64,000 nt of DNA from Minisyncoccota bacterium. Lineage in GTDB: Bacteria; Patescibacteriota; Minisyncoccia; Phycocordibacterales; UBA918. The translations under genes were made by a program, and so were the position numbers. The stretch's first letter is position 1, and every line of letters begins with the position of its first letter. The notes under the pieces are model-generated. The model was given only the letters and a program-made list of their open reading frames with translations, made no database searches and had not been told where the DNA came from. The DNA lies in contig JALHRC010000004.1 in the NCBI GenBank assembly GCA_022841645.1, positions 4,078 to 68,077 on the forward strand, read 5' to 3'. Positions 16,649 to 53,647 of the stretch are shown here, in pieces.

Positions 16649-16995
16649 GAGTACAATATCCAGCTACAGGTACAGAGCATTATACTGGCAAGTAGTGGAC
16701 TGTAAACTCGTGCACCAATTTTAAAAAATAATGAGAGAGATTTTTCAACAAAGCGTGCAACTGTGCATAACGTGTGAATAAGTGGCAAGGCTCTAAGCAC
16801 TTTTGTACTGAAAAGGTAACAACGAGTGTCGTTGTGTTGTGCGCTCCACTATTTCCTCCTTTGCGACATCGTGTAGTGTTGTTTTAGACTCCGCCCCAGC
16901 AGATACGACACGGCATAGTGTTATAGAGCCCATCAGTAAATGAAGGCTTGAACTACTGGTTATTTCCTGTATAGTGTGGCAACTAACCAATAGTC
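16649..16995. promoter_or_regulatory. Putative oriC / dnaA promoter region between dnaA and rpmH
   Basis: Classic rpmH<>dnaA divergent organisation. AT-rich stretches and DnaA-box-like 9-mers (e.g. TGTGAATAA around 16768). Boxes were not mapped exhaustively. Confidence 0.4.
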
Positions 16996-17148
16996 ATGTC
17001 AAAACGAACCTATCAGCCGAAGAAGCGTAAGCGCGCCACTACCCACGGCTTTCTTGTGCGCAGTGCGACCACGAGCGGCCGCAAGATCTTGCGCGAACGC
17101 CGCCGCAAGGGCCGTGCCCAACTTACCGTTAAGAAGAAGGTCCGGTAG
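16996..17148 (+). CDS. rpmH: 50S ribosomal protein L34
   Basis: Hand translation gives [50 protein letters not shown]. Not in the ORF track (below 60 aa). Confidence 0.9.
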
Positions 17149-17155
17149 TTGTTTC

Positions 17156-17181
17156 CAAAAAAGCTCGCGAGAGCTTTTTTT
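17156..17181 (+). terminator. Hairpin plus T-run between rpmH and rnpA (possible attenuator)
   Basis: AAAAAGCTC-GCGA-GAGCTTTTTTT. Confidence 0.55.
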
Positions 17182-17199
17182 GCTCTATACTGAGTAGGT

Positions 17200-17529
17200 A
17201 TGCTTCCAAAGTCGCTGCGGCTATCGCGGACAGAATTTACGCAGGTTTTTGGAGTGGGTCGACGTATTCATAGCCCCGAACTAACCTTGATTTATAAGCC
17301 CCAGGCCACCTTTAAGGCCGCTGTGGTAGTAAGCAAAAAGGTAGGTAAGCGTGCCCATGAACGGGCGACCATTCGCCGCCGTCTCTATACGGAGCTTGCC
17401 GAGGTCGCCAGGACTGGCGCCACCAGTGCTTATATTGTACTTACGAAGCCCCCGTTGGTGGCCCTAAGCCGCGCCGCTCAGCGCTCAGCCCTCCGTAGCC
17501 TCCTTGGCCGTACCACAAAAGAACGATAG
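17200..17529 (+). CDS. rnpA: RNase P protein component
   Basis: 109 aa, basic. LRLSRTEFTQVF ... position downstream of rpmH. Confidence 0.85.
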   Translation: MLPKSLRLSRTEFTQVFGVGRRIHSPELTLIYKPQATFKAAVVVSKKVGKRAHERATIRRRLYTELAEVARTGATSAYIVLTKPPLVALSRAAQRSALRSLLGRTTKER

Positions 17530-17538
17530 AATACGCCC

Positions 17539-18267
17539 ATGTTTTCTTATCTGTGGCACACTTTCTTTTTTGATCCGGTCTATAACGGACTGGTTTTTTT
17601 TATCGATATTCTTCCCGGCGGTGACGTCGGTTTTGCCATTATTGCGCTCGTGGTGGTGGTAAAAACCATCCTCCTCCCGCTGTCCATTAAAGCGGTAAAA
17701 ACCCAGCGCATCATGCGCGAAATTGGTCCAAAGTTAAATGAAATTAAGGAAGCGCATAAGGATAACCGTGAAGAACAGGCGAAGGCGATGATGGCGGTCT
17801 ATCGTGACGCCGGCCTTAATCCGTTTGCGGGTATATTTGTGGTACTCCTTCAAATTCCCATCCTCATTGCCCTTTATTTTGCTGTTTATAGCGGTGGTGG
17901 TGTGGCGCTGCCGGCGATTAATGTTGAACTCCTGTATGGTTTTATCCCAGTGCCACAGATAGTGAATATGAACTTCCTTGGCCTCCTTGATATTACGGAG
18001 GCTAGTGTGCTCCTGGCCGTCCTTGCCGCCGCGACGCAGTTTCTCCAGGTAAAGTTTGCTATGCCACCCTTGCCTGCCCCCGAGCCAGGTAAAACCCCCG
18101 ACATGAAAGACGACATCATGCGCATGATGCAAGTGCAAATGAAATACCTCCTTCCACCACTGATTTTCTTTGTTAGTTACACCACTTCAGCGGCTATTGC
18201 GCTCTACTTTGTAGTGAGCAACCTGGTGGCAATTGTGCAGGAATTAATCATTAAGCAGCACCGGTAA
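17539..18267 (+). CDS. yidC: Membrane protein insertase YidC (short Oxa1-like form)
   Basis: 242 aa, 5 TM. Conserved position after rnpA. YidC/Oxa1 core motifs. Confidence 0.8.
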   Translation: MFSYLWHTFFFDPVYNGLVFFIDILPGGDVGFAIIALVVVVKTILLPLSIKAVKTQRIMREIGPKLNEIKEAHKDNREEQAKAMMAVYRDAGLNPFAGIFVVLLQIPILIALYFAVYSGGGVALPAINVELLYGFIPVPQIVNMNFLGLLDITEASVLLAVLAAATQFLQVKFAMPPLPAPEPGKTPDMKDDIMRMMQVQMKYLLPPLIFFVSYTTSAAIALYFVVSNLVAIVQELIIKQHR

Positions 18268-18270: not shown

Positions 18271-18810
18271 TTAAGTTGGAGGTTGAGTTGGTGTTATACA
18301 GCGCCCACCTCCAGCATTTACCTCCCATGTCCCCCCACCTCGAGCACATGCCTCAGCTCTTGGACGTTGTCCTAAAGGTATAGGGTTGCCCCGAGGTTGC
18401 TGGGGTGGTGGCGCAGGCGCAGCCACTGGTCGAATTATTGGCTGGCTCTCAAAAATGCGCAGACGGGTTAAGTTTGGGTTGATGGTCTGTAGGATGATAA
18501 ATGTTGAAACAATCAGCAGTAAACCCAAAAGCGCCCCCCAAATATCCTTCTTAGCGTCAGCTTTGCTGGTCACTATGTCAGTGAGCATCCACTTCACCCC
18601 TGCCAAAATAATCTTTATAACTGCCAGGAGGGCAGCGATGCTGATAGAAAGAAAGTAGAGTTGGTTGATATAGTCACCAAAGTTTTGGGCGGCGTTACTC
18701 ACCCCAGGAATACCTACCAGCGGCTGATACTGCAGTACGGTCGGTTGTTGCGCCAACACATCGAGTGGTACAGCAATAATGAGGACCACGACAAGTGGCA
18801 GGAGAAACAT
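18271..18810 (-). CDS. VirB2/TrbC-like pilin candidate (signal peptide + two hydrophobic helices)
   Basis: Signal peptide MFLLPLVVVLIIAVPLDVLAQ, then two TM segments separated by a short loop (FLSISIAALLAVIKIILAGVKWM ... ALLGLLLIVSTFIIL). Last gene of the T4SS-like operon. Start set at the internal Met to avoid overlap. Confidence 0.4.
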   Translation of the reverse strand: MFLLPLVVVLIIAVPLDVLAQQPTVLQYQPLVGIPGVSNAAQNFGDYINQLYFLSISIAALLAVIKIILAGVKWMLTDIVTSKADAKKDIWGALLGLLLIVSTFIILQTINPNLTRLRIFESQPIIRPVAAPAPPPQQPRGNPIPLGQRPRAEACARGGGTWEVNAGGGRCITPTQPPT

Positions 18811-18823
18811 CCGCCCACGTTGG

Positions 18824-20026
18824 TTATTCGTTAAGTGCATACATCCACAAAGTACCATCATAACGATTTTTAAAATAGAAGCGGTCTTCCGAAGAGTTTA
18901 TGAGAACATCAACAGCATCCACAAGACGGCCGCTATAGGCCAAGAGGTCAAGTACGTAACTTGTTTCATACGCTGTCTCAGTCACTTCTATTTTTACCAA
19001 GCTGTCACTGTCTTTAAGATCACCCCGATACCAGCTATCGGGGAAACCAAAAGCCACCTCCTGATTAGAAACGGCGCACCAGAGTGTGTCGGTAGTGAGT
19101 GCAGCAGCACACTTCTCAGGCAGAAAAACAGCTGGCACCACTCCGGTGGTTTGGCGGGCCGTATCAAATATAAGTGACTCGTACGGAACTTGGTCAAATT
19201 GACCACTGGCAGCCACTCGACTCCCAGCCAGTACTGCCGTCAGCCCGTATCCCTCTAAAGGTAACCGCTTGAGGCGACCATTAGTGAGCTCATAGAGATA
19301 GCCTTCTAGCAAGTACGATGGCTTTGGGTAGACAAGGTGTGGCCCAGACGCGGTATCACCCCACACGACCACGACGTCTCTAAATGGTAGAGTGTACAGT
19401 ATGCGCGACGCGCCTCGGGGCAAAGTCATGGCGTGGAGGGAAGTGGTCTGTCCGCGAACGGCATAGAGAAGCTCGCCACCAGTGGTCACTTGAAAATCAG
19501 TAACTGGGCCACTAAGGGTAAACTGTCGCAACGGTTCACTAGCTTCACCTAAAGTACCAATGGTGGTTGTTTTGGTAGTACCGTAGCCAGACTGAATAAC
19601 CACGTACTGCCCGTCAGCTGAAAAGTCGGCTCGAAAGGCTTCAAATACTGTCGTTCCGGAGAGTCGCTCCTCGATAGCGTTGTCTAGGTTAATCTCATAG
19701 ATGTGGCCCGTTCCCGCCTCTACGTAGCGTACTCGGGAACCAGTGCTTGTACCGGTACCTGCGGGCACTAGTTCACGGAACCCTACCACAGGACGAGTTG
19801 TGAGTTGTCGTAAACGATTGGGCGTCGAAGTGGCGGTGCTAACACCAGCACCAGTGTCAGGTGGTACTGGTGCCAGGGAATTTGTTGGTGAGCCGTCACC
19901 AAAGTTAAAATCAGTGAGAAGTTCATCAACTGATTCGGGAGTCCCAAAAAACATAACGTACGCCCACACTACAACCAAAAGAATGAGAATGATTATTGAT
20001 CCGAGTAGGATAAGTAGTCTTTTCAT
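18824..20026 (-). CDS. Secreted or membrane-anchored protein of the T4SS-like operon
   Basis: N-terminal TM. 400 aa with repetitive beta-rich composition. Confidence 0.5.
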   Translation of the reverse strand: MKRLLILLGSIIILILLVVVWAYVMFFGTPESVDELLTDFNFGDGSPTNSLAPVPPDTGAGVSTATSTPNRLRQLTTRPVVGFRELVPAGTGTSTGSRVRYVEAGTGHIYEINLDNAIEERLSGTTVFEAFRADFSADGQYVVIQSGYGTTKTTTIGTLGEASEPLRQFTLSGPVTDFQVTTGGELLYAVRGQTTSLHAMTLPRGASRILYTLPFRDVVVVWGDTASGPHLVYPKPSYLLEGYLYELTNGRLKRLPLEGYGLTAVLAGSRVAASGQFDQVPYESLIFDTARQTTGVVPAVFLPEKCAAALTTDTLWCAVSNQEVAFGFPDSWYRGDLKDSDSLVKIEVTETAYETSYVLDLLAYSGRLVDAVDVLINSSEDRFYFKNRYDGTLWMYALNE

Positions 20027-20028
20027 AC

Positions 20029-21000
20029 CTAGAAACTGACGACCACATCAGATTGTGCGCCCTGCAAGACATTTGTGGTATTACGAACATGGAATGATAC
20101 ATTACTAGAGCCCTCTACATTGCTGCGACTGATTGTTATCGCGTAAGGGTTGTTATCACTACCAATACTAGGTATGCCACCGATACTCCACTCAGCTATA
20201 TCAGGTTCGTTAAAAGTTAAGATATCTAGATAGTAGGGGTGGGCAGTAATAGTGGTGCTTTGCGAGATCAAATTGAGATCAGTGATCGGCCACGGACTAA
20301 GGCCAAGCAAACTGCTCTCCTCATGGAAACGTAGTTCAGGATCACTATTTGTAAGATAGATTGTTCGTTCTGCAATGACCCCTACACCAATTTTTTCAAC
20401 CTCAAGTTCGACATAGGCATCCCCCCACGGCATAACAAATGACACCATTGATCGCCCACGTACTGGGCCGTCAAACAGTATTTTGTTGTTGACACGCCAG
20501 GTATAGACCAGTTCAGCTAGATCGCCACCACTTTCCATGCGTGCAGTAACATTGACTTGGCTGCCGTGGCTCGGAACAGCTCGCGCCCCATAAAACGAGG
20601 GGACGTATGTTTGTGGTTCAACAATTAAGTCGAGATAGCGAGGCGTGATAGTTTGTCGGGCCTCATTGATAAGACCGTTACCGTTTTCAGTATAGCTTAC
20701 TATCTGAAGCGACTGACCGTCGTCGGGCGCCGTGAGTGTTATTTTCCGTTCGTTCTGCCATTCGCGGCGTTCAACGCTGTTAACAAACCAACGAATACCC
20801 CCACCGCTTCCACCAGCAGCATAGTCATCAATCTGGGCAGTGAAAGCAGTATGCGGCGGCGGAAGTGCAGGTGAAATGATAATTTTTGGTGCACCGTCAT
20901 TTACTTGCTGCGTCAATTGCGCAACCACAGATTGATGGGGGAGAAATATGCCACTAACAACAAGGTAGAGAATACCTAAGCGTTTCATTGGTCTAATCAT
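20029..21000 (-). CDS. Secreted protein of the T4SS-like operon
   Basis: Signal peptide. 323 aa. Confidence 0.5.
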   Translation of the reverse strand: MIRPMKRLGILYLVVSGIFLPHQSVVAQLTQQVNDGAPKIIISPALPPPHTAFTAQIDDYAAGGSGGGIRWFVNSVERREWQNERKITLTAPDDGQSLQIVSYTENGNGLINEARQTITPRYLDLIVEPQTYVPSFYGARAVPSHGSQVNVTARMESGGDLAELVYTWRVNNKILFDGPVRGRSMVSFVMPWGDAYVELEVEKIGVGVIAERTIYLTNSDPELRFHEESSLLGLSPWPITDLNLISQSTTITAHPYYLDILTFNEPDIAEWSIGGIPSIGSDNNPYAITISRSNVEGSSNVSFHVRNTTNVLQGAQSDVVVSF

Positions 21001-21040
21001 AGCAAAGTCAGGGGGCTAAGTGTGCAGTACTTACCCCCTA

Positions 21041-21856
21041 CTACCGCGGATAGCGTAGCATCGCAAGAAGATAAAAAATGAGCCAGGGAAACAGATTTGC
21101 TATAGGCACCGCGTACCCCACGATGCTAAGTAGCAGTAAACCGATTTTTAAACTACTCTTCTCACCAAATAGCGGCCGCTGGTGGCATAAAATATAAACG
21201 ACCACTACAGTAAATAGTATAAACAAAAATATACCTAATAAAACAATCTGGACTGCCATTGCAGCGCCCAGAAACCCACCAGTAAAGTTGGTTCCAAAGA
21301 TACCATTAAACAGGCTGGTCGCGGAACCAAGGACACTGAGCGTTAGCCGTCCGAGCCACGAGGCATTGAGTGATATTTCAAGTGCCAGAAACGCAAGAGC
21401 AATTCCCGCGATTGTTATCTGTACACTTGCCCAAAACGACAAATAGAGCGTTATTATAAGGCGTGTCAGGCTTTGATAGTGGAGTCGATTGAGGGCAACA
21501 GTTCGCGGAACAACACCCTGACTGTACTCGTGGGTAGTCAGGTCCGCAATCAGCGCCGCCTCTTCTTGTTGACGTAAGGCAGCCTTCCGCGCCTCTAGGT
21601 GGGCGCGCTCCTGCGCCAGCTCGATCTGGTAGCGTCTGCGTTCCTCCACTTCCGCTTCTGCTACCGTTTGTGCGTAAACATTTTGTTCACTGCTTAGTAA
21701 ACGTTCCCCCGTGAGGCGTTTGCTCTGGTCCTCAGTAAAACGCTTGTTCGTAGGTGTACCAGTGGGGGCACGTTTTCCGCGATCAACCGTTACCGTATTT
21801 TGCCAATCAGGCACGGCCTTTTTTTCTAGCTCTGCTTTGGAGAGTGGCCTAGCCAT
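21041..21856 (-). CDS. Coiled-coil + 4-TM membrane protein of the T4SS-like operon
   Basis: N-terminal charged coiled coil (ELAQERAHLEARKAALRQQEEAA), then four hydrophobic helices. Confidence 0.5.
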   Translation of the reverse strand: MARPLSKAELEKKAVPDWQNTVTVDRGKRAPTGTPTNKRFTEDQSKRLTGERLLSSEQNVYAQTVAEAEVEERRRYQIELAQERAHLEARKAALRQQEEAALIADLTTHEYSQGVVPRTVALNRLHYQSLTRLIITLYLSFWASVQITIAGIALAFLALEISLNASWLGRLTLSVLGSATSLFNGIFGTNFTGGFLGAAMAVQIVLLGIFLFILFTVVVVYILCHQRPLFGEKSSLKIGLLLLSIVGYAVPIANLFPWLIFYLLAMLRYPR

Positions 21857-21881
21857 GTCCTCATTGTACTACGAACGACTC

Positions 21882-23678
21882 TTAGCCCCGACTAGCGCGT
21901 AGCTCGTCACGCGATTTGCGGATCTGGAGGAGTTGTGAGGGGTCAGAGGTGATGATTTGATCCTCGGTATAAGAAGCTTCGATCTTGATCGCAATGTGTT
22001 TGAGGCCAGCAAAAAAGATGCCCTCCCCCACACCACTTTCAAGGAGCAAGTACTTCTCTTCGTCCGTCAGATTAAAGGTTTTTTGAATGTTATCAATCGC
22101 TGTCGGGGATTGTTTCATGAGAAGCTGGAGGCTCGAGTTTGTAATCATCGGGACCCCGTAAGGTGAGCGCAAGAAATCGTCCACGTCCTGAGTAATGGTT
22201 GCTATACCAAGGTAGTATTTACGGCCGCGCTTCGCGAGACTAAAAAGGAACGAAGCTGTATCTTCAGATTTCATCATCCACCATGCCTCGTCGATAACGA
22301 GAAGACGTTTGGTGAGTCGGCGGCGCACTGCGCTCCAAATGAAGTTCGTCACGATATACATGGCGATGGTTTTAAGCTCGTCCTCCATGTCGCGGAGCGA
22401 GAACACCACAAACTTTTGGTTGATGTCGACGTTGGTAGGTTGATTCATAAAGCCCGACCAGGTGCCTGAGGTGTATTTTTGTAGTCGTGAAATGAGTGAA
22501 GCGCTTCCTTCCATGCCAGCCAGTACCATTTCAAAATCGGAAAGGAGAGGTGGTTCTTGTCCCGCAAAGTCAGCGTCACCCGTGATGTCCTTAAGGGCGT
22601 AGGTTTCGTTAATAGCGAGGTCAACAATCGTTTCCTCTTCCGGCGAAAGACCGCCAAGCATGAGACGGAAGAGACCAATGAGTTCAATCACATGGCTACG
22701 CAATACGTCTTTAGGGTTTTCATCGGCCTGGGGTGCTGGCAGGTCAAACGGATTGATATGGTGGTCAGAGGAAAGCGAGATGTTGAAAAAGCGTCCGCCA
22801 GTCGCTTCGGCCAGATACTCATACTCGCGCTCGGGGTCAAGCACAATCACTTCGGTGCCGAACATAAGAGAGCGGAGAATTTCGAGCTTGAGTGCATACG
22901 ACTTCCCTGCCCCTGAGGTAGCAAACGTAACCGAATTGTAATTGGTAAGGCTAAAGCGATCAAAAATAACCAGCGAGGAGTTGTGACGATTGATCCCGTA
23001 CATAATGCCGGTGTCGGAGGTGAGGTCAAATGAGGTAAAGGGAAAGAAGCTTGATAGCGGTGAAGAATTGAACTTGTTGTGAACAAGCAGCCCGTCGCTG
23101 GCTAAGGGAACAATACTCTGCATACCTTTTTCTTGTTCAAAATAGCCTGGTTTAACGTAAATAAGGCGGGAATCCAAGAGACCCTTGAGGTCATTTTCGG
23201 CGATATTGAGTGCTGCTTCGTCAGTGCCATAGAGGCAAATGTACAGGCCGACGTCAAAGATTCTTTCTTCCGATTGTTGCAATCGGTCACGCATATCTTC
23301 GATATTTTGGTAGGCGGCTTCGAGTTGGGGGTCACGCACTTCCCCCCGCTCGGCCTTGATGCTGATTTGACTCTGCACCTCGGCTACTTTCTTTTGGAGC
23401 TTCTTCAGCATGTCGGCGGTATTGATGGGGTGAATGAAGATCGAGATGTCGAGCTCGCGTTCGAGGTTGGTGACGGGCTGTAGCCAACCATCGGTAAGGG
23501 TGCGCGGGTAGGAAATGGTGTAAAACACCCGAGCGCTGACACCACCCAAATTGATGTTGCGGGGACTAATCTCCACCACTGATGGAGCAATAACGTCGGT
23601 AATTGTAAGGAGGTGGCCAGCTGGGTCAGTAATACCCTCGCTGATCTTTTTGCTTCTGAAGATGTCAAAGAGTCCCAT
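21882..23678 (-). CDS. virB4: VirB4/TrbE-family type IV secretion ATPase (C-terminal 598 aa)
   Basis: Walker A TSGAGKSY, Walker B LLVIDEAWWMM, VirB4-like flanking motifs. Confidence 0.8.
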   Translation of the reverse strand: MGLFDIFRSKKISEGITDPAGHLLTITDVIAPSVVEISPRNINLGGVSARVFYTISYPRTLTDGWLQPVTNLERELDISIFIHPINTADMLKKLQKKVAEVQSQISIKAERGEVRDPQLEAAYQNIEDMRDRLQQSEERIFDVGLYICLYGTDEAALNIAENDLKGLLDSRLIYVKPGYFEQEKGMQSIVPLASDGLLVHNKFNSSPLSSFFPFTSFDLTSDTGIMYGINRHNSSLVIFDRFSLTNYNSVTFATSGAGKSYALKLEILRSLMFGTEVIVLDPEREYEYLAEATGGRFFNISLSSDHHINPFDLPAPQADENPKDVLRSHVIELIGLFRLMLGGLSPEEETIVDLAINETYALKDITGDADFAGQEPPLLSDFEMVLAGMEGSASLISRLQKYTSGTWSGFMNQPTNVDINQKFVVFSLRDMEDELKTIAMYIVTNFIWSAVRRRLTKRLLVIDEAWWMMKSEDTASFLFSLAKRGRKYYLGIATITQDVDDFLRSPYGVPMITNSSLQLLMKQSPTAIDNIQKTFNLTDEEKYLLLESGVGEGIFFAGLKHIAIKIEASYTEDQIITSDPSQLLQIRKSRDELRASRG

Positions 23679-23686
23679 ACAAATAA

Positions 23687-24319
23687 TTAACGATCAGCCA
23701 CTGGGGCGTGGGCGGTTGGCTCCCCTGGGTTGTAGACGTGGAAAAAGAACTCCACCAACTCGTCGTTACCGAGCGCAATCGTACGGATGCCCATTTGTAG
23801 CAATCCTTGCTCGATAATGGCAGTTCGTTGGTCGAGTTGCAGTCGCTGCTCTTCAAAACGCAGTTCGCCGGTTACCGCGCCCTTTCCTTTGGAAAGGATG
23901 GCACCAAAATTTTTAGAAATATTGAGGGGAGCAGCTGTATAAGGTACCACCACAAAAAAGCTTTTTGCCATCACGTTGTTGTCAGTGGTAAATTTTTTGA
24001 TGTACAAAAGATATTCACGTAGCTGCACGCGCATGAGGTCGTTGTCTTGCTTCTCCTCAAGCGCCCGTAGAGTATCAAGGTAGGGATCAATATTCATGCG
24101 TCGCGATTGAATGTAAATCTGGAGGCTAAAGTCGAGGGTATTAAGAAAGTTTTGAAACTGGAGCAGAAGCGCTTGTTGTTCGTCCTGCGATTTTAGGGCA
24201 AAGTTGACCGAAGAGGCTAATAAAATGCGACACAACTGCCCGCTTTTTAGGATCACTACCCCATCACGAATATCGCGAATGGTGACAAAGTCTTGGCTGG
24301 CGGGAGTAGCTTTTGGCAT
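23687..24319 (-). CDS. 210-aa protein that may be the N-terminal domain of a split VirB4, or a separate T4SS subunit
   Basis: Ends 8 nt before the VirB4 ATG. 210 + 598 aa is roughly canonical VirB4 length. Confidence 0.45.
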   Translation of the reverse strand: MPKATPASQDFVTIRDIRDGVVILKSGQLCRILLASSVNFALKSQDEQQALLLQFQNFLNTLDFSLQIYIQSRRMNIDPYLDTLRALEEKQDNDLMRVQLREYLLYIKKFTTDNNVMAKSFFVVVPYTAAPLNISKNFGAILSKGKGAVTGELRFEEQRLQLDQRTAIIEQGLLQMGIRTIALGNDELVEFFFHVYNPGEPTAHAPVADR

Positions 24320-24321
24320 GG

Positions 24322-24741
24322 TTATTCTTTTTTCTGGAGCGCTTGCATTTCAAGCGAGCGGGCAAGTGAGGTGATAGAGAGTCGTGGTCGGTGTGATGCC
24401 GGTATATCTTTAAGGAGGAGATCTTCCTCGCTGTGGTTTGGTGCAGCGGTGTACATCACTTCACCACGGCGTCGCCAGAGGTAGAGACGGGCTTGGCTGA
24501 AATAGAGGAACATTGCTTCGAGGAAATATTCTAAACGACGATTATTGACTTGGTAAAAGGCTAAAGCTAGGGCAAAGCTTCCAAGCGGTATGCCTAAAAG
24601 TACGAACACCCAAAAGGGGGTAGTAAGAAAGAGTACTACTCCCATCCCTATTCCGCCACCTAGATAGATAAACTGCCGCCAGGTGAAGGGGCCAAAGACC
24701 TTGTCTTCGATTTCAATGAACTGTGGCACGTCAAAACGCAT
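24322..24741 (-). CDS. VirB3/PrgI-like small membrane protein
   Basis: 139 aa with a hydrophobic hairpin (GGGIGMGVVLFLTTPFWVFVLLGIPLGSFALALAFY), immediately upstream of VirB4 as in other T4SS. Confidence 0.4.
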   Translation of the reverse strand: MRFDVPQFIEIEDKVFGPFTWRQFIYLGGGIGMGVVLFLTTPFWVFVLLGIPLGSFALALAFYQVNNRRLEYFLEAMFLYFSQARLYLWRRRGEVMYTAAPNHSEEDLLLKDIPASHRPRLSITSLARSLEMQALQKKE

Positions 24742-24821
24742 ACGACTACATTATACACGGGCGGCAGTGAGGTATCTGCCTCACCGTCGCCCGTGTATCC
24801 CCAACCACGTAGCTTTGTTAC

Positions 24822-25424
24822 CTATTTTCGTTCAGCACTTTCCCACTGTGGTACGTCGCCTCCCTTACGTGGTGTCCCTGGGCGCAGCAGGGTTGGCTGT
24901 TCTGAAACATGTACCGATGCGTCGTGGTGCTCTTGGCTCTGGAGATCCTCCATGTCCCGCGCCATGGTGCGGGATGGTGCAATGCGTGCCAGTGCTTCTT
25001 CAGCCTCAGCTATATCATTTTCCATTACGGTAGTGGTCGCCACGGGAGTGGATGGTATCGGCGGTACCGCAGTCACTGTAACCGATGCCTTATTATCAGC
25101 AGTTCTCTCTTCTTGCGGCGGTTGCCAATTAGAATCATTGAGGGGCTCCAAAGAATCCAGTAAGTCGGCAGTTATACGCAAAGCTTGTACATCAGAAATA
25201 GCCAGACTTTCCTTCAGAAGTCGAGGCAAATCCGTTTGAGGATAAAAGCCTAGAATAACGTCACCGATAATTAAGGCGTATGAGCTATATTGATCTTCAG
25301 TCAATCCGTTTTTTACAAAAATTTCTCGTAGTTTTTTTCCAGCACCAACATGCCCATACAAATATTTTTGTGCGGGTGTTCCATTTGTGTGGCGTTTATG
25401 GCGCTCTTGTTCTGTTGGTGACAT
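24822..25424 (-). CDS. Hypothetical soluble protein of the T4SS-like operon
   Basis: 200-aa ORF, no recognisable motif. Confidence 0.45.
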   Translation of the reverse strand: MSPTEQERHKRHTNGTPAQKYLYGHVGAGKKLREIFVKNGLTEDQYSSYALIIGDVILGFYPQTDLPRLLKESLAISDVQALRITADLLDSLEPLNDSNWQPPQEERTADNKASVTVTAVPPIPSTPVATTTVMENDIAEAEEALARIAPSRTMARDMEDLQSQEHHDASVHVSEQPTLLRPGTPRKGGDVPQWESAERK

Positions 25425-25429
25425 AAGAG

Positions 25430-27634
25430 CTAGAAGCTACGGCCTTGAGGAGTGTTAGTAAGCCAGTCATGTGCAATGTGTCCCGCAGGTGTGGCGGCCG
25501 CCGCTATAATATGGTCCCTTATTTCCTTTCTTTCTTTAGCATTAAGTACTTTGGCAATTTCGCCCAGTGCCCCACCAGTCAAGTGATTACGAATTTCAGC
25601 ACGATTGAGGATGGATTTTGGTAATTTAGCAATTTCTTCATTGTTTTTAAATTTGTTTAAGAAGGCCGGTATGCCACCCATACTGGCAGCTGTGTTGAAT
25701 GCGCTTACTAAGCCGGCAGTGTGAATATTAATAATTCGTTCCTTCTCAGTTTCAGTAAAGTCGTTACTCTTTTTAATGTCGTCAATTTGGCTAAAGGTGA
25801 GTTCGGTGGCGAGTGGTAACATGCCTGCGGCGCGGTCCTCTGTAAGTTTCCGTTCCCCAAGAACTTTAAGTTGACTAGAACTGGCCTTCTTAAGTCCTTT
25901 ATCAAGCGCAGCGTCGTCGCTCATGCCAGTGCGTGCAGCTGCCGCCGCAGCTTCCGCAGCGGCAGCTGTACCACCAGCAGCAATAACAGTATCTCGAGCC
26001 TTGTTGGCTTCTTCTGTACGAGCCCGCTCCTGCAGGGAGCCTGTAATAGATTCCTGGCGGGCAGTAGTTATGGCTGCCTTTTGTCCATCATTTAGATCCT
26101 CGTCCTTTGCTTTCATTAGAGCGTCATACTGGGGGGCAGAGAGACTAGCAATAAAAGCTTTGTATTCCGGAGAGCCTTCCTTCATGCCACCAAGCACTTT
26201 AAGGACCTGTTCGTTAGAGGCACTAGAGATTGCCCGTTCCATGGCAACTTTCTGATCAGGGGTAGCTCCGCTTGCTGAACCTGCTGTAACGGCACTTGAA
26301 ATAGTGCCGACTGCCTTCTTCCGGGCCATAAATCTATCGCGTTCATCGGAAGCATCACTAGCAGATTTCCAGGATGTAGATCCACCAAACTTTGCTTCTT
26401 TGGCAGATTTGGCAATACCTCGAAGGGAGCTGTCGCTTCGTACGCCCCAACCCTCAAGTTTTCCGTCAGCATATTTTCCAAACCGACCGACGCTATTTCT
26501 TCCCACAAAACTTTGTGCACTACCACGCATTTTATTCCCAAGATTAATCGCAGTACTCGCGCCGGCAATACTGAGCTTATTTGCAAATATCACCGAAGCC
26601 AGTAGGAAACCGCAGGCAATGAAGAATGTGGCAAATGCTTGAATGCCCCCAGCCGCCGCCGGGTCGCCACTGATTCCCGCCGAGCCGGTGATAGCGTCAA
26701 ACAGGCTGCTACGATTGGCTCCTTGTTGCGTGTTCTGGGCAGCCTGCATGGCTTGCATGACGCGCAAGGCCATATAGATCATCAGCAAAAAAACCGGTGC
26801 GAAAAAAATGTACGAAAAAAGCTGCTTGACGTATTTATCGGTCATCCCGCCCAGGCTGGGGAGCACTAATTTGAGGAACAAGAGCGGCGAGAGAATCATA
26901 AAAATATTGAGGGCAATAAAGCGTACAAGCAGGAGCACTCCGCCGACCGCAAAGCTGAAAGCTGCAATAATAAAAAGAATCAGCACGAGAAAAACGTACG
27001 AGAAGTGAGGAGTGTCGCGCTGCCAAAAGTTACCCCCCTGCCACACTGTCTGTAGCCCCATGCTGTCAAGAAACGCCAGCGACACGTTGGCGCGCCCAGC
27101 ACTGTCTACGAGGCCCAGCTGGGCTATTTGGACAGCGGCAATATTGGTGAAGTCAATGGCTGCCTTGACAAAAAAGAGGCTAAAATTTACCAGGAGGGCT
27201 GCAATCACTAGGTTGATCAAGGCTTTCTTAGCCGAGGCACTCTCCGCATCCCAAATGAGGCGCAACGCAATGTAAACGAGCCCAAAAATAAACGTTAGGT
27301 TGAAGATATCACGAACAAATTCCCATAGATTATTGACCGCTATGCCAAGTCCGCCGCCGGAGAAGCTTCGCCCAAAATCGACGATGTAGTTGGTAATTGA
27401 CCAATCCAAGAAGCTGCCCGTGATCCAAACAAGCAGGCCGAAGACTTGCACTACGAGTGACCACAAAAGGGCAGCAATGAAGTCATAGGCGACACCAAGA
27501 GGGTTCGGGGTGCCGGTACCCTGCGCAAATACCTCAACGGGCAGTAAGGACAGTACCACAGCAGCCGCAAGCAAATACGCCACAGAGCCGATACTGCCAA
27601 AAAAGAAGCGGCGGCGATGGAAACGTGTAACCAT
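25430..27634 (-). CDS. VirB6/TrbL-like polytopic membrane protein with a ~400-aa hydrophilic Ala-rich C-terminal extension
   Basis: Signal peptide plus at least 6 TM helices in residues 1-340. C-terminal half is charged and coiled-coil. Confidence 0.5.
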   Translation of the reverse strand: MVTRFHRRRFFFGSIGSVAYLLAAAVVLSLLPVEVFAQGTGTPNPLGVAYDFIAALLWSLVVQVFGLLVWITGSFLDWSITNYIVDFGRSFSGGGLGIAVNNLWEFVRDIFNLTFIFGLVYIALRLIWDAESASAKKALINLVIAALLVNFSLFFVKAAIDFTNIAAVQIAQLGLVDSAGRANVSLAFLDSMGLQTVWQGGNFWQRDTPHFSYVFLVLILFIIAAFSFAVGGVLLLVRFIALNIFMILSPLLFLKLVLPSLGGMTDKYVKQLFSYIFFAPVFLLMIYMALRVMQAMQAAQNTQQGANRSSLFDAITGSAGISGDPAAAGGIQAFATFFIACGFLLASVIFANKLSIAGASTAINLGNKMRGSAQSFVGRNSVGRFGKYADGKLEGWGVRSDSSLRGIAKSAKEAKFGGSTSWKSASDASDERDRFMARKKAVGTISSAVTAGSASGATPDQKVAMERAISSASNEQVLKVLGGMKEGSPEYKAFIASLSAPQYDALMKAKDEDLNDGQKAAITTARQESITGSLQERARTEEANKARDTVIAAGGTAAAAEAAAAAARTGMSDDAALDKGLKKASSSQLKVLGERKLTEDRAAGMLPLATELTFSQIDDIKKSNDFTETEKERIINIHTAGLVSAFNTAASMGGIPAFLNKFKNNEEIAKLPKSILNRAEIRNHLTGGALGEIAKVLNAKERKEIRDHIIAAAATPAGHIAHDWLTNTPQGRSF

Positions 27635-27636
27635 AC

Positions 27637-29385
27637 CTAATTTGAATAGAGCGGTGTTTGGTTAGTTTTCTTGCTCAAACTGTCAAGTGGTATGCCCCAG
27701 CGGTCGGCGGCGGCCTGTACTTCGTTTGGGGTGTGCAAGTCCGCCTTAATCTCAGGGTACTCTTCCATTAGCACAGCCTCGCGCTCGGCTCGCGTTGTAG
27801 CCTCATCGTAGTCTAGAATTAGATTTTGGAGATCAATGACATTATTTTGGATATCCGGTCGTAGTTCGCGAGCTTCAGCATAGGCCGCTCCGCTGCTACC
27901 TCCTTGGTCGTTCGTATAGCGCGCAATAACGGCGTTCGTGAGTTCAAGGTAGCTTTTTTCATTTTCAAGAGCAGTCATGAGCGTGCCGCGGTGGGAACCG
28001 CCGTCACTTTTTAGACGCATACCTTCAAGACCATATGACCAACGAATGGCCTGTGTCTCAACCTCGTCATCGCTTGGTAACTCGGCTGCCTTAGCAGCGA
28101 GATCTTTTAAGATGGTCACCCGTTGTTCGTCGGTCTTTGCATCTTGCAGCGCGAGGCTGACTTCCTCTAGTGCTAAAGCAATTTTTTCTAGTTCGAGGAC
28201 CTTTTCAGCAGCTTCTTTAAAGGTCGCATCAGCCCGTTTTTGCACCTCGGGATCATTGGTGTACGAGTCGAGATAGCGGTCAATAGTAGTTTCCGCCAGA
28301 TCAAGATAGCGTTTTGTTGCACGTAGTGATTCGTCGAGTAGTTGGACCGCTTGATTGATATTGACTGCCCCATAGAGTTCGTCTTGGAACATATCAATGT
28401 TAAACGATGGATTTTTATACCGACTGTTACCGCCGAGACCCAAAAGCCCGCGCACGCCACTTAGTGCTTGGAGAGCCACTTGACTCATAAAAGCACCAAT
28501 GAGTTCATTGATTTCATCAGCCTCTACCAACGACTCATTACCCAGCTGTAGCGTCTGATTGATTTGGCTGCTAATTACCTGCCCGGGGGTAACAATGCGG
28601 CAGACTTGTGGAGCTACACCCCCGCCGGGCACTGTGCGCGGTGGATCGCAAACTCGTGATGACAAGAAGCCTGCTCCCCACCCGCCGATTGTTAGTTGTT
28701 GTCCACGGGCATTTACAATTCGTGCGTGCAACCCTACGGTTGCTGAAATGCCGGCTCCGTACGGCGTATACACACTGGGGTTAAGAACCACACTGCGCCA
28801 GGCGGGCCACCCACCGGCATTAACATCCCCCCGGATGAAACCCTCTAAATTTTGGAGCATACCACTTAACGTACAGCGCCGCTGTCCTTTGTATCCCCGC
28901 TGGTAAGCAATCGAAACAGCCATTTGCACATCGAGTCGGAAAGGCGAGCAAATAATGGAAAGTTCACCATTCCATAGACTGGTTAGATAAGCAGCTGCTT
29001 CTTCATCGGCCACATCAACTAAAAACTGCCCGAGGTCCTGAATATAGGCGGGGCTGCCTTGAAATCCCGTATTCACCCAGCGAATGGTTTCTCGCATGAT
29101 CTGGGAAATCACAGCCTTAGCAAGGTGCCAGCCAACCGGTCGAATAACGGTGTCCCACCACCACTGCCGAGACGTGAGTGCCAACTGGGCGACGCCGGTG
29201 TAGGCACTGATAGTGCTCTCGATGGAGGTTCTGACCGACGCTAGCCAGGTCATTAAGTCGAACGTCGGCAGCTGCGCCAGTGCGACTTTTGGCTGTAGGC
29301 GTTCGACGGGTTGAGGCACGTACACTGCTACCGTGACAAACACGAAGGTGAGCAACGCAATGAGTGATGTGCTAAGTATCTTCAT
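27637..29385 (-). CDS. Large secreted protein of the T4SS-like operon
   Basis: N-terminal TM/signal. 582 aa. 4-nt overlap with the upstream gene. Confidence 0.5.
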   Translation of the reverse strand: MKILSTSLIALLTFVFVTVAVYVPQPVERLQPKVALAQLPTFDLMTWLASVRTSIESTISAYTGVAQLALTSRQWWWDTVIRPVGWHLAKAVISQIMRETIRWVNTGFQGSPAYIQDLGQFLVDVADEEAAAYLTSLWNGELSIICSPFRLDVQMAVSIAYQRGYKGQRRCTLSGMLQNLEGFIRGDVNAGGWPAWRSVVLNPSVYTPYGAGISATVGLHARIVNARGQQLTIGGWGAGFLSSRVCDPPRTVPGGGVAPQVCRIVTPGQVISSQINQTLQLGNESLVEADEINELIGAFMSQVALQALSGVRGLLGLGGNSRYKNPSFNIDMFQDELYGAVNINQAVQLLDESLRATKRYLDLAETTIDRYLDSYTNDPEVQKRADATFKEAAEKVLELEKIALALEEVSLALQDAKTDEQRVTILKDLAAKAAELPSDDEVETQAIRWSYGLEGMRLKSDGGSHRGTLMTALENEKSYLELTNAVIARYTNDQGGSSGAAYAEARELRPDIQNNVIDLQNLILDYDEATTRAEREAVLMEEYPEIKADLHTPNEVQAAADRWGIPLDSLSKKTNQTPLYSN

Positions 29386-30305
29386 GGTGTAGGTGTCGCC
29401 ACGGGCATTTGAATGTCACTAAAATTAGCAAAATACAAACCAGGGTCGTTGGCGCTAAAGCTCGGCGCATTATCTTCAAGTGCGTCGTACATTGCCTTCA
29501 TTCCCTGAGCGAGAGCCTCGACACTCACCTCGTAGCGATTGAGGTGAATGAGTGACCGAATCGGGTCGGCCTCGACCATCGTAAAGGCATCAATGTCGTT
29601 AGCCAGCACGTTGAAAACATTAACAAGCTGCAGGTGCTCATCTGCCAGCGATGCTGGTACCGGCAAGGCCAAAAACTGGTCACGATAGCGACGATAAATA
29701 TCGGCTTTAGCACGCAGCGCCGCTGCATCATCGGGGCTACTAGTTTGAACAAATTTTTGTAGTAAGAGTAACTCGTGTGTCATCTGGCTACCTTCACTTG
29801 AAGTGATAGCCAGAGCAGCTGCGTTGGCGTAGTCGCGGATACTGGCGGGGGTTTCAATGGTGGACACTATAACATCAAAACGGTCATACGGTTGCTCTTG
29901 TATCTGAGCTGCCAGTTCTGATGACACACTACCAACCAGCGCTTCGTCTGATTCACCGAGAGAGCCCGAGGCACGTGATAGTAAGTAGCGCTCCATCAGA
30001 CTAATTCCCGCTCGCTCAGTCAGCGTACCACTGCGGGAACTTGAGCCCACATCGTCACTCAAAATAACCGGTGAGGCCGTCAAAAAAGGCTCTTTCCAGT
30101 CTTCGATACCGTCGCGATTGCGGTCTGTTACAGTAATACCGGATCGAGTAGCCACAATGCCAGTTGCGACCGCTGGGTTGTTTTGGGCGGTAGCGTTTAA
30201 GGTGTTGAGCCACCAAGCGGCACAGACAAGTCCAACGCCGACTACAGTCGCACCGAGCACACGGACGTTGATGCCGCGTAGCATGTGTGTAGTATAGCAG
30301 CTCAC
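29382..30305 (-). CDS. Membrane-anchored protein; first gene of the T4SS-like operon
   Basis: N-terminal hydrophobic segment. 307 aa. Confidence 0.5.
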   Translation of the reverse strand: MSCYTTHMLRGINVRVLGATVVGVGLVCAAWWLNTLNATAQNNPAVATGIVATRSGITVTDRNRDGIEDWKEPFLTASPVILSDDVGSSSRSGTLTERAGISLMERYLLSRASGSLGESDEALVGSVSSELAAQIQEQPYDRFDVIVSTIETPASIRDYANAAALAITSSEGSQMTHELLLLQKFVQTSSPDDAAALRAKADIYRRYRDQFLALPVPASLADEHLQLVNVFNVLANDIDAFTMVEADPIRSLIHLNRYEVSVEALAQGMKAMYDALEDNAPSFSANDPGLYFANFSDIQMPVATPTP

Positions 30306-30342
30306 GCTAAGTGCAAGACAGACTCTCCCCCAGGACCGTGTA

Positions 30343-31197
30343 TTAAGGGCCTAAAAGTGTTGTAGCGAGCGCATGCCACGCCTGAAATGATAGATCTTCA
30401 GCACGAATGGTGAGCGATAGGTGAAGGGCAGAAAAAATCTGCTCTAGCTCACTGCGCTCGTAGTGTTTGGCTAGGTTGCCAAGCAGCTGCTTGCGTTTTT
30501 GTCCGAAACCGAGATGAAGCAGGGTAAAAAACTCTTTTGAAGAAAGGCCGGCGAGTCGTTCGCGCGAAATATTCCTGACGGCAATGATCGCCGAATCGAC
30601 CTTAGGTGGCGGGCTAAAGTTGCCTCGCTTTACCGTACATATATATGAAGGGTCACCATAGGCAGCTACTCCAAGCGATAGGAGGGATGATTTAGGGTCG
30701 CGGGCAATGCGCTCTGCTACCTCTCGTTGTACGAGAAAAACCAAGGTCGCGGGCTGAAGAGCGTGCTCGAGGAAGGTGCGAAAGAGTAGTCCGGAGAGAT
30801 AATACGGAATATTAGCAACTACCTTATACCTGTGGTCCGTAAGGCCAAGACCCTGGAGGTCCAGTTCCCGGGCGTCTTGTTCCGATATAACTAGCTTTTC
30901 GGCTCTAATTTCACCAGAAAAGCGTTCTTTAAGGTGGGTGATAGCGCGCTCATCAGTCTCGATGGCGACCACCTTGGCGCCCCTGGCTAAGAGTACTTCG
31001 GTGAGTACGCCTGTACCCGGGCCAATTTCAACCACAAGATCGCCCTCCCCCACCGCAGCCGCGGCGCACATCCGTTCGGGAATGACGGGACTCGTCAAAA
31101 AATGCTGCCCCAGGGACTTTTTCGTGATAAAGCGCTCGGCTGCCATATTCCTCATACTACACGTACTGCCGGTGTCGTGCGAGGAGTGGAAATGCAA
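30343..31197 (-). CDS. rsmA: 16S rRNA (adenine1518/1519-N6) dimethyltransferase
   Basis: SAM motif VVEIGPGTGVLT; KsgA signature NIPYYLS. Confidence 0.85.
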   Translation of the reverse strand: MHFHSSHDTGSTCSMRNMAAERFITKKSLGQHFLTSPVIPERMCAAAAVGEGDLVVEIGPGTGVLTEVLLARGAKVVAIETDERAITHLKERFSGEIRAEKLVISEQDARELDLQGLGLTDHRYKVVANIPYYLSGLLFRTFLEHALQPATLVFLVQREVAERIARDPKSSLLSLGVAAYGDPSYICTVKRGNFSPPPKVDSAIIAVRNISRERLAGLSSKEFFTLLHLGFGQKRKQLLGNLAKHYERSELEQIFSALHLSLTIRAEDLSFQAWHALATTLLGP

Positions 31198-31209
31198 ATA
31201 ATTTGCATT

Positions 31210-33177
31210 TTAGTCAAGATAAATGGTGGTTTCGTAACCTGAGCTATTCCCCCACCGCCTACCCTCATCAAGCTGTACATGCTCGGGGCTAATATCCGAA
31301 AGAAACGATGAGGGCACGTTTACGCGCTGTGACCCATAGACAGTGCGTAGGTGGGCGTAGGTGAGGTGGAGTTGGTGCTTGGCGCGGGTGAGAGCAACAT
31401 AAAAGAGACGACGTTCCTCCTCGCGGTCGATACGAGCGTCGTCGAGCCGTTCGTGCGGAAAAAGCCCTTCTTCGAGGCCGGTGATGTAGACATGTTCGAA
31501 CTCGAGCCCTTTGGCGGCGTGGACGGTCATGAGGCGCACCGCGTCGGCTTCACTCTTGTCTTTCAGTTCATCTTGATCACTCTCAAGCGCCGCGCGCTCA
31601 AGGAGCGCCGTCACCGCCTCCTCTACCGGTAGACCATCGTAACGGGTAGCCACCGACACGAGCTCGCGCAGGTTCTCGAGCCGTTCGAGGCTTTCCTCGG
31701 TCCCCTCGTCTTTGAGCATGCCTTCAATGCCCGAGCGCTTCATAATAAATTTTATTACTTCCGATGGCCGCTCGCTTTTTGCCGCTTCAGTGATGCTCTG
31801 CATGATGGTGTAAAAGCTTTCGACCTTCTCACGCACTGAGCCCGAGAGTTCCTCACGTCGTCCCTCGAGGAGTTTAAGGAGCGTCACTTTACCAATGCCG
31901 CGGGCGGGTTCATTCACCACCCGACCCAAATCCCCTTGGCTGTCGGGGTTGAGGGAGAGACGCAAATACGACAGCACATCCTTCACCTCCTTCCGTTCAA
32001 AGAATTTGGTCCCCAAGAGTTGATACGGGATGGCGTTACGCAGAAAGGCTTCCTCGAGCACACGTGACTGAAAGTTGGTGCGGTAGAGCACAGCTATTTC
32101 CGAGGGAGCAGTACCAACTTTGATGAGGTCGGCGGCACTACGCGCTACGTAGTCGGCCTCGTCCCCTCCCCCCATCGCGGCAAAGAGACTAATTTTCTCC
32201 CCGATCTTGTTGTTAGTAAACACTTCTTTTTCAATGCGATTTTTGTTCTTGGCGATAATTTCATTGGAGGCCGCAATAATGATTCCCGTAGAGCGATAAT
32301 TTTCAGCCAAAATAATGGTGCGCGCGCCCGGAAATTCCCGTTCGAAAGTGAGCACGTTTTTGATGTCGGCTCCGCGCCAGGAATAAATGTTTTGATCGAT
32401 GTCACCGACCACGCAGATATTATTACGTTCGCCCGCAAGCAGACGCATGATGTCAAACTGCAGCCGGTTGGTGTCTTGATACTCGTCGACATGAAGATAG
32501 CGGTAACGGGCAGTCAGGGCGTCGCGGACGGGTGGATGTTCGCTAAGGAGACGATAGGTCTTCCCTAAAAGATCGTCGAAGTCGAGTGCGTGTTCGCTCG
32601 CAAGAATGGCATCGTATTTCTCCCACACGGTCGCCGCCACTTCTTCGGGGTACGAGCTCGCCGCATCTTTAAAACGAAGTGCCGTGAAGCCATCTCCCTT
32701 GGCGCGTGAGATCATGCCGAGAATACGGCGTGGTTCAAATTCTTTAGGGTTATACTGGGCAGCTTCGAGTGCCTGTTTGATGGCGCGTAAACTGTCACTA
32801 CGATCGAGGATGGTGAAGTGTCGGCGCAGCCCCATGACGTCGTGAAATTCCCTAAGTAGCCGTACTCCAAGGGCGTGGAAGGTGGTCACTACCGGCGCGC
32901 TATCGAGGAGAGCCCGATCACTTGGAGGGTACTTCGCTAGGAGTGCCGTGGCTCGCTCACGCATTTCACTGGCCGCTTTGTTAGTAAACGTGACGGCCAA
33001 GATAGCATGGGGTGGCACGCCGCGGTGTACGAGGTGCACGATGCGGTGCGTGATAACGCGGGTCTTTCCAGAGCCAGCACCAGCCAGGACCAAGACCGGT
33101 CCTTCCATCGCTAAGACCGCCGCTTTTTGTGCGTCATTAAGACCCGTGAGGTATGGTGCTTCGCCAGGCTCGCTCAT
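31210..33177 (-). CDS. pcrA: UvrD/PcrA-family ATP-dependent DNA helicase
   Basis: Motif I AGAGSGKTRV, motif II VDEYQDTN, the other SF1 motifs and a C-terminal extension. Confidence 0.85.
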   Translation of the reverse strand: MSEPGEAPYLTGLNDAQKAAVLAMEGPVLVLAGAGSGKTRVITHRIVHLVHRGVPPHAILAVTFTNKAASEMRERATALLAKYPPSDRALLDSAPVVTTFHALGVRLLREFHDVMGLRRHFTILDRSDSLRAIKQALEAAQYNPKEFEPRRILGMISRAKGDGFTALRFKDAASSYPEEVAATVWEKYDAILASEHALDFDDLLGKTYRLLSEHPPVRDALTARYRYLHVDEYQDTNRLQFDIMRLLAGERNNICVVGDIDQNIYSWRGADIKNVLTFEREFPGARTIILAENYRSTGIIIAASNEIIAKNKNRIEKEVFTNNKIGEKISLFAAMGGGDEADYVARSAADLIKVGTAPSEIAVLYRTNFQSRVLEEAFLRNAIPYQLLGTKFFERKEVKDVLSYLRLSLNPDSQGDLGRVVNEPARGIGKVTLLKLLEGRREELSGSVREKVESFYTIMQSITEAAKSERPSEVIKFIMKRSGIEGMLKDEGTEESLERLENLRELVSVATRYDGLPVEEAVTALLERAALESDQDELKDKSEADAVRLMTVHAAKGLEFEHVYITGLEEGLFPHERLDDARIDREEERRLFYVALTRAKHQLHLTYAHLRTVYGSQRVNVPSSFLSDISPEHVQLDEGRRWGNSSGYETTIYLD

Positions 33178-53634: not shown

Positions 53635-53647
53635 GGGGGTCGGCTAG

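Follow-up and report, generated by a model that had tools for sequence, protein, structure and literature searches.

The gene cluster that occupies positions 18271-30305 of the 64 kb stretch of contig JALHRC010000004.1 analysed here (the window) very probably encodes a chromosomal type IV secretion system (T4SS) of the class Paceibacteria, derived from MPF_FATA-type conjugation machinery and turned into a vertically inherited core apparatus. It is one more instance of the known Patescibacteria-clade T4SS in its Paceibacteria arrangement, and every element of the earlier finding on this DNA (the original prediction) has already been published. Eleven tightly packed minus-strand open reading frames (ORFs) fill the interval exactly and were numbered g1 to g11 along the direction of transcription. 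Twelve genes had originally been counted, but the ORF listing gives eleven, and the spacers, at -4 to 80 nt, leave no room for a further one. The one exception to this spacing is g10/g11, where the overlap amounts to 38 nt when the longest pilin ORF is used. The cluster comprises:

29382-30305, minus strand: g1, membrane-anchored extracytoplasmic protein, 307 amino acids (aa)
27637-29385, minus strand: g2, transmembrane (TM) or signal segment, Cys-containing domain and helical C-terminal half, 582 aa
25430-27634, minus strand: g3, VirB6/TrbL-like polytopic membrane protein, 734 aa
24822-25424, minus strand: g4, small soluble protein without a TM segment, no family, 200 aa
24322-24741, minus strand: g5, PrgI/VirB3-like small membrane protein (PF12666), 139 aa
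23687-24319, minus strand: g6, TrsD-like, detached N-terminal segment of VirB4 (NCBIfam), 210 aa
21882-23678, minus strand: g7, VirB4 ATPase, remaining N-terminal domain and C-terminal motor domain, 598 aa
21041-21856, minus strand: g8, charged coiled N-terminal half followed by three to four TM helices, no family, 271 aa
20029-21000, minus strand: g9, secreted protein, signal peptide and Ig-like beta-sandwich domains, 323 aa
18824-20026, minus strand: g10, N-terminal TM anchor and TolB-like beta-propeller, 400 aa
18271-18861, minus strand: g11, VirB2-like T4SS pilin (PF18895), 196 aa

The true start of g1 is probably the ATG at 30284, which gives a product of 300 aa, and the pilin probably starts at Met18, at 18810. 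Seven of the eleven products (g1, g2, VirB6, PrgI, g9, g10 and the pilin) carry a secretion signal or membrane anchor.

The predicted VirB4 ATPase, described as possibly split, was confirmed in both respects. G7 matched the NCBIfam model conju_CD1110 with 349.8 bits against a cut-off of 325 (E-value 3e-104, model positions 183-733), matched the TraG P-loop and AAA_10 families in Pfam, and retains an intact Walker A (SGAGKS) and Walker B (LLVIDEAW) motif in its translation. Searched against the PDB, it was closest to the Firmicute VirB4 structure 4ag5 (6e-42), with R388 TrwK, of the MPF_T type, at 7e-5. The adjoining g6 was matched in NCBIfam by VirB4_plasma, the Mycoplasma VirB4 (4.4e-9, model positions 114-243), CD1110 (1.2e-6, positions 8-130) and TrsD (1.9e-5). 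Since g6 aligns to N-terminal positions of models of full-length VirB4, the ATPase is split in the TrsD/TrsE manner, and the TrsD piece adjoins virB4 in all 80 related loci compared. Likewise, the VirB3-like small TM protein holds, as g5 scored 43.6 bits against PF12666 (cut-off 27; 4.6e-11), and prgI is present in 76 of the 80 related loci.

The VirB6/TrbL-like and VirB2/TrbC-like proteins were recognised through their orthologues. G3 matched PF04610 (TrbL/VirB6) below threshold (2e-4), but nine of 32 orthologues hit this family, the best at 6.5e-7, and the top PDB match of the g3 family profile was TrwI, the VirB6 of R388 (1.2e-3 over about 250 residues); together these uphold the assignment. 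G11 was sub-threshold against PF18895 (17 bits), DUF4134 and TrbC in Pfam and against the Mbov_0395 pilin-like family in NCBIfam (2e-3). PF18895 is nevertheless matched by 26 of 29 pilin orthologues (best 2.4e-10) and TrbC/VirB2 by five, so that the pilin candidate stands as well. Aligned pilins share a signal peptide, two hydrophobic helices and a conserved 'TINP' end, followed by a variable tail containing Pro and Cys; in relatives this Cys-containing C-terminal tail varies, with lengths of 122 to more than 550 aa. A search of the PDB with the pilin family profile gave no match. Neither Pfam nor NCBIfam detected members of the VirB7, VirB8, VirB9, VirB10 or VirB11 families in the cluster.

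At its C terminus g3 further extends into a variable tail, about 375 aa long and rich in Ala, Ser, Gly and Lys, for which exposure at the cell surface had been proposed. The C terminus of Agrobacterium VirB6 is cytoplasmic. Given this analogy and a hydropathy count of a signal peptide plus about seven TM segments, the tail is more likely cytoplasmic, and surface exposure is not supported.

These components are those of a system already described. In a survey of 3,035 Patescibacteria genomes, VirB4 proteins formed a monophyletic clade nested in MPF_FATA, with TrsD, PrgI/VirB3, VirB6 and PF18895/PF04956 pilins encoded near virB4 and very few homologues of VirB8 and VirB1 (PMC12102498; Quinonero-Coronel et al. 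2025). Relaxases were found in just 103 of these genomes, and the clusters of Paceibacteria and Microgenomatia lie near dnaA, dnaN, rnpA, ksgA and rpmH, which was read as a gene-dosage effect (PMC12102498). The window locus shows the same combination: by similarity ranking its VirB4 groups with those of Patescibacteria, with the MPF_FATA-type CD1110 as best model, a TrsD-like protein is encoded beside virB4, and PrgI/VirB3, VirB6 and, judged from its orthologues, a VirB2-like PF18895 pilin are encoded near it. No relaxase or type IV coupling protein (T4CP) gene was found close to virB4 among the ORFs scanned with Pfam, and the position near dnaA, dnaN, rnpA, rpmH and ksgA is likewise shared.

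In Southlakia epibionticum, of the same phylum, the homologous genes SEML1_0006-0019 were essential for epibiotic growth as determined by transposon sequencing, and recognisable coupling and relaxase proteins are lacking in this cluster (PMC10633639; Wang et al. 2023). Its genes follow the prgI-trsD-virB4 order found in the window, and both loci encode a TrsD piece next to VirB4, PrgI, VirB6 and PF18895 pilins. They differ in that a single pilin gene at the window locus stands against an array of six in S. epibionticum, and in that SEML1_0012 has an NTF2/VirB8-like fold, which was found in none of g1, g2, g9 and g10, while g4 and g8 are without any match. A lysozyme or peptidase gene directly downstream of virB4 is also absent from the window locus.

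With the MPF_FATA systems pCF10 Prg/Pcf, pGO1 Trs and Clostridioides difficile CTn2 CD1110 the window locus shares the CD1110 family of VirB4, PrgI and the lack of the outer-membrane core genes VirB7, VirB9 and VirB10; with pGO1 it also shares the TrsD/TrsE-style split of VirB4. In contrast to them, it has no relaxase or T4CP among the Pfam-scanned ORFs and no adhesin such as PrgB, is fixed in the chromosome and vertically inherited, and encodes a VirB2-like pilin, which Gram-positive systems do not have. The Ptl system of Bordetella and the VirB system of Brucella combine VirB2, VirB3, VirB4 and VirB6 and work without a cognate coupling protein (PMC12857230, PMC12102498), but these are diderm MPF_T systems with VirB7-VirB11 and known protein cargo, whereas the cell represented by the window is monoderm and those parts are absent.

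The Patescibacteria T4SS is the first to have been found essential for the bacterium encoding it and a leading candidate for the means by which ultra-small epibionts tap their hosts. It is also the only monoderm T4SS with VirB2-type pilins, and it has been reviewed as pilus-forming (PMC12857230, a 2025 FEMS review). The same review speculated that it is a conduit through which the cell exchanges material with its host or takes material up from it. In a 2026 preprint (10.64898/2026.06.21.733656) tubular structures, possibly T4SS pili, were seen at the interface between Microgenomatia and host; the cultured Microgenomatia strain acquires host RNA, and PNPase and VirB4 were linked to feeding on this RNA.

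The inheritance of the locus was followed across VirB4 relatives, with one genome per species and at least 564 loci. The best 80 of these relatives are 66-88% identical in VirB4 and come from metagenome-assembled genomes mostly named Patescibacteria, Paceibacteria or Kaiserbacteria. The order pcrA-rsmA-[g1..g11]-yidC-rnpA-dnaA-dnaN recurs across related loci, including the convergent layout with yidC, and only in more distant loci does a minor inversion of pilin and propeller genes alter it. Across loci, VirB4 identity correlated with that of DnaA, PcrA, RsmA and YidC (rho 0.66-0.87), while the median identity of VirB4 (70%) exceeded those of DnaA (58%), YidC (44%) and DnaN (40%). As VirB4 divergence tracks that of DnaA and PcrA, the comparison marks the cluster as a core locus that is passed on vertically under strong constraint, and not as an integrative and conjugative element (ICE).

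Pfam scans of the window, which covered its main non-overlapping ORFs with a length of 150 aa or more, detected no T4CP (VirD4/TcpA), relaxase, integrase or recombinase. Only housekeeping genes appeared among the scanned ORFs, such as polA, tsaE, ruvB, yebC, ruvC, tyrS and those for PBP1A and PNPase, as well as genes for the CCA-adding enzyme and a PilB-like T2SSE ATPase. The absence of VirD4, relaxase and integrase noted originally thus holds for the window. The wider statement that the system has no coupling protein may not extend to the whole genome, since VirD4-like or T4CP genes occur in most Patescibacteria genomes, mostly distant from virB4 (PMC12102498).

Six proteins, not the seven originally listed as additional proteins without a recognisable family, remain outside the assigned core, and g9 and g10 among them have recognisable folds. 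For g9, the family profile hit the Ig-like domain of Hoc in the PDB (4e-4), and among 31 orthologues nine matched BiPBP_C and two Ig_3. The g10 family profile retrieved about ten TolB sequences from the PDB (1e-6 to 1e-5), and its orthologues matched PD40 weakly. G1 comprises an N-terminal TM helix, a DxDxDGxxDW (TSP3-like) motif and, in its structure model, a four-helix bundle; an NTF2 fold was not seen in the model. As the homologue search with the single g1 sequence returned only five proteins, it was repeated with a profile.

G2, g4 and g8 are without a family. The Cys-containing domain of g2, about 250 aa long with the motif WINSGFQGSPAF..., is strongly conserved, and all 105 homologues found are unnamed Patescibacteria proteins. 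Sequence searches of Pfam, NCBIfam and the PDB gave no match, and a PDB profile search returned coiled-coil noise. In the AlphaFold2 model the conserved N-terminal domain is of low confidence and the C-terminal half confidently helical; a family assignment by Foldseek against the PDB was dropped, as only generic or designed helical bundles matched. The sole family lead is DUF4141, weakly matched by two of 65 g2 orthologues. With DUF4134 in the pilin, this gives the locus a faint likeness to conjugative-transposon families of Bacteroidetes. From these likenesses and the position of g2 just upstream of VirB6 the idea arises that g2 may be a VirB5/TraI-like tip protein, for which the evidence is too weak to make a claim. 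G4 diverges fast in sequence, and a soluble ORF fills the slot between VirB6 and PrgI in the related loci examined. G8 is similarly divergent with a conserved position, a polytopic membrane ORF following VirB4 in related loci. Together with their positional orthologues (75 proteins), g4 and g8 matched no Pfam family, and g4 and g8 also matched none in NCBIfam.

None of the testable subunits proved to be VirB8-like (NTF2), as judged by structure model for g1 and by profile or fold search for g2, g9 and g10, and local hidden Markov models revealed no paralogues of the pilin, VirB6, g1, g2, g9 or g10 elsewhere in the window. The accessory set of four-helix bundle, Cys-domain, Ig-like and TolB-like proteins is kept across the related Paceibacteria-type loci examined and is not described in PMC12102498 or PMC10633639.

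In the mechanism that we propose, VirB6, PrgI and TrsD/VirB4 would form a platform in the cytoplasmic membrane, where VirB4 would supply the energy to extract the Sec-processed pilin and polymerise it into a short pilus or a conduit across the monoderm wall. G1, g2, g9 and g10 would provide wall-spanning and tip functions, standing in for VirB8, VirB1 and adhesin parts. The apparatus would act where the epibiont touches the host cell that it depends on, moving macromolecules without a relaxase and coupling-protein route, either as protein export or as import of host material, for example nucleic acids. With neither a T4CP nor a relaxase encoded in cis, export of DNA by conjugation is unlikely. 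A more specific version, which we regard as rather unlikely, holds that g1, g2, g9, g10 and the tailed pilin constitute an undescribed wall-spanning and pilus-tip module that replaces VirB8, VirB1, VirB5 and adhesins and forms an import conduit for host RNA or DNA. If this were true, the module would let a T4SS without a coupling protein in cis import host macromolecules instead of acting as an exporter.

Several points weigh against this reading of the locus. A T4CP encoded elsewhere in the genome may reopen canonical export of DNA or effectors. Inside the cluster no VirB8-like or VirB1-like subunit was identified; a LysM-M23 peptidase is encoded 3.2 kb off. The roles given to g1, g2, g4, g8, g9 and g10 are deduced from location and fold. 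VirB6 (g3) and the pilin (g11) individually fall below the Pfam gathering scores, so that both were assigned from their orthologue families and not from the window proteins themselves, and VirB4 is placed in the Patescibacteria clade by similarity ranking. Essentiality and the pilus images, finally, come from Saccharimonadia (PMC10633639) and Microgenomatia (10.64898/2026.06.21.733656), not from Paceibacteria.

A dedicated DNA-uptake (competence) T4SS like ComB of Helicobacter or the archaeal Ced system, taking in DNA from the environment or the host to feed a cell that cannot make nucleotides, appears improbable as an alternative. To our knowledge, ComB-type systems are also without VirD4 and relaxase, and H. 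pylori ComB and Sulfolobales Ced resemble the window locus in being chromosomal and resident systems that lack relaxase and T4CP. The window VirB4 has a weak, partial match to CedB (5.8e-8), the subunit sets of ComB and Ced differing from that of the window. A ComM-like Mg-chelatase gene (34638-36152) and ruvABC- and polA-type genes for DNA processing in the window would also suit this function, as would the T4SS loci of the class ABY1, which sit with comF, recG and radA (PMC12102498). However, deletion of comEC in S. epibionticum ended transformation but not viability, and the T4SS is essential (PMC10633639, via PMC12857230). This implies that its essential role in that species is not ComEC-dependent DNA uptake, which by analogy is unlikely to be the essential role here. 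A functional link of the T4SS to ComEC was not seen in the single Patescibacterium tested (PMC12857230). Moreover, S. epibionticum needs type IV pili for competence, and the window includes a gene for a separate PilB-like ATPase.

Equally, we give little credence to an apparatus without any translocation, limited to making an adhesive VirB2-type pilus by which the cell attaches to its host. By analogy with F and T pili, the variable, Cys-containing pilin tail would lie on the pilus surface, Ig-like and beta-propeller proteins are encoded beside the pilin gene, and the lack of a coupling protein in cis suits a non-translocating pilus. Nevertheless, VirB6, the channel subunit, has been kept and is conserved, adhesion of Saccharibacteria has been attributed to type IV pili (PMC10633639, PMC12857230), and both Patescibacteria studies favour transfer of macromolecules.

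An ICE or decayed ICE remnant, inserted by chance beside the origin, is very improbable, since, although monoderm conjugative elements have the same VirB4, PrgI and TrsD families and the GC content of the cluster (0.499) is slightly lower than in the remainder of the window (0.532), the neighbouring dnaN-yidC block is lower still (0.482), flanks and gene order are common to many species, VirB4 diverges in step with DnaA and PcrA and is the best conserved of the three, and the scanned ORFs include no relaxase, T4CP, integrase or recombinase. No att-like pair of direct repeats bounds the cluster, no tRNA gene that could serve as a target adjoins it, the nearest lying at 58-62 kb, and the inverted repeats detected occur within 13-36.5 kb. 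Of the features of a conjugative element, a relaxase, T4CP and integrase were thus not found in the scanned ORFs of the window, att repeats were not found at the borders of the cluster, and a variable insertion site was not seen, the flanks being identical across species. An adjacent relaxase or VirD4 with att sites had been named as the observation that would overturn the idea of a resident apparatus; it was looked for in the window and not found, and the suggested comparison of relatives showed the same order and flanks beside dnaA in many species. The original view of a resident apparatus, and not an ICE, is therefore borne out by conserved synteny, VirB4 co-divergence, flank-like GC content and a window in which neither mobility genes nor att-like repeats were found.

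The cluster is probably not the single operon that was first assumed, as -10-like boxes precede three of its genes:

30291-30296, minus strand: TATACT before g1, ending 6 nt before the ATG at 30284
24750-24755, minus strand: TATAAT before prgI, ending 8 nt before the ATG at 24741
21863-21868, minus strand: TACAAT before g8, ending 6 nt before the ATG at 21856

TATAAT or TATACT ending 6-8 nt before the aligned prgI start was found in 44 of 72 related loci, compared to none of 72 at a control offset, and the bases around the prgI hexamer are not conserved. The same arrangement precedes yidC in 42% of loci and g9 in 39%, and Shine-Dalgarno-like motifs are near-absent upstream of all genes examined. 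A -10 box placed 6-8 nt before the start codon has the spacing of actinobacterial leaderless promoters. The pattern therefore suggests at least three leaderless transcription units, beginning at g1, prgI and g8, rather than one operon, and also that leaderless transcription is widespread in the lineage. In particular, the prgI box would act as an internal promoter for a leaderless prgI-trsD-virB4 transcript.

Other signals were sought between 17 and 34 kb. A scan for the sigma-70 promoter consensus gave no more sites than expected by chance. Terminator-like sites numbered 30, compared to 17.2 expected from shuffled sequence, with none at a gene boundary within the cluster. The spacer between g4 and prgI contains a strong, GC-rich 19-bp hairpin at 24753-24798 (minus strand; centroid -35 kcal/mol, z -4.6), which lies directly upstream of the prgI -10 box and has no U-tract. 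Its role as a conserved terminator or attenuator was rejected, as the prgI-upstream regions of 71 relatives fold no more stably than random 65-mers (p = 0.36); similar hairpins occur in a few close relatives and are not enriched overall.

The genes that flank the cluster are:

13851-14990, minus strand: dnaN (Pfam, ORFs)
15263-16648, minus strand: dnaA (Pfam, ORFs)
16996-17148, plus strand: rpmH (ORFs)
within 13851-18267, plus strand: rnpA, beyond yidC as seen from the cluster (Pfam, ORFs)
17539-18267, plus strand: yidC, convergent with the pilin gene g11 (Pfam, ORFs)
30343-31197: rsmA/ksgA, upstream of g1 (Pfam)
31210-33177: pcrA/uvrD helicase, upstream of rsmA (Pfam)

An origin-region housekeeping block dnaN-dnaA-rpmH-rnpA-yidC (13851-18267), delimited by Pfam, ORFs and GC skew, abuts the cluster, and only 3 nt separate the end of the pilin gene from that of yidC. 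The adjacency to rsmA/pcrA and yidC claimed in the original prediction was therefore correct, and its placing of oriC is compatible with the GC skew. The cumulative GC skew of the window is lowest at about 13-15 kb, as would suit an origin inside the dnaN-yidC block. A consensus search showed no enrichment of DnaA-box matches in the window, and the dnaA-rpmH spacer holds just two DnaA boxes, each with one mismatch. Should the dnaN-dnaA-rpmH block (about 14-17 kb) contain the origin, as the GC skew suggests, transcription of the 15 kb T4SS-rsmA-pcrA block (18271-33177, minus strand) would run head-on to the rightward fork.

To the published descriptions this analysis adds a subunit-by-subunit map of the Paceibacteria arrangement with its conserved accessory proteins and their folds, the higher conservation of VirB4 compared to DnaA, DnaN and YidC in the lineage, sequence evidence for leaderless internal promoters, and the head-on orientation to the putative origin. 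Given a tractable Paceibacteria co-culture, these additions could guide structural and genetic work.

Further genes in the window touch on these subjects. With its T2SSE match (2e-104) and an MshEN domain, the PilB/GspE-type ATPase encoded at 5172-6944 (plus strand) suggests that this genome also has a separate type IV pilus or competence-pilus system. The secreted LysM-LysM-M23 peptidase at 33561-34535 (plus strand), 3.2 kb upstream of g1, is co-located in ten of the 80 related loci and may be the VirB1-like wall-hydrolase partner counted near virB4 in the Paceibacteria literature. PNPase (38382-40499, minus strand) and an adjacent NYN-domain, RNase-like protein (40736-41374, minus strand) are encoded 8-11 kb from the T4SS, and the proximity of PNPase to it may be coincidental. 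An HTH_38/HTH_32 (IS30-like) ORF lies 19 kb from the cluster at 49462-50424 (minus strand), and a Terminase_5-like HTH ORF at 60438-61118 (plus strand) among four tRNA genes (tRNAs 58175-62507); both may be remnants of small mobile elements distant from the T4SS. Finally, positions 36534-38324 (minus strand) encode a Pro-rich protein of 596 aa that has a single TM helix, ends in a domain of about 190 aa and matched no Pfam family, and two tandem paralogous genes for M14 zinc carboxypeptidases occupy 52723-54586 (minus strand).

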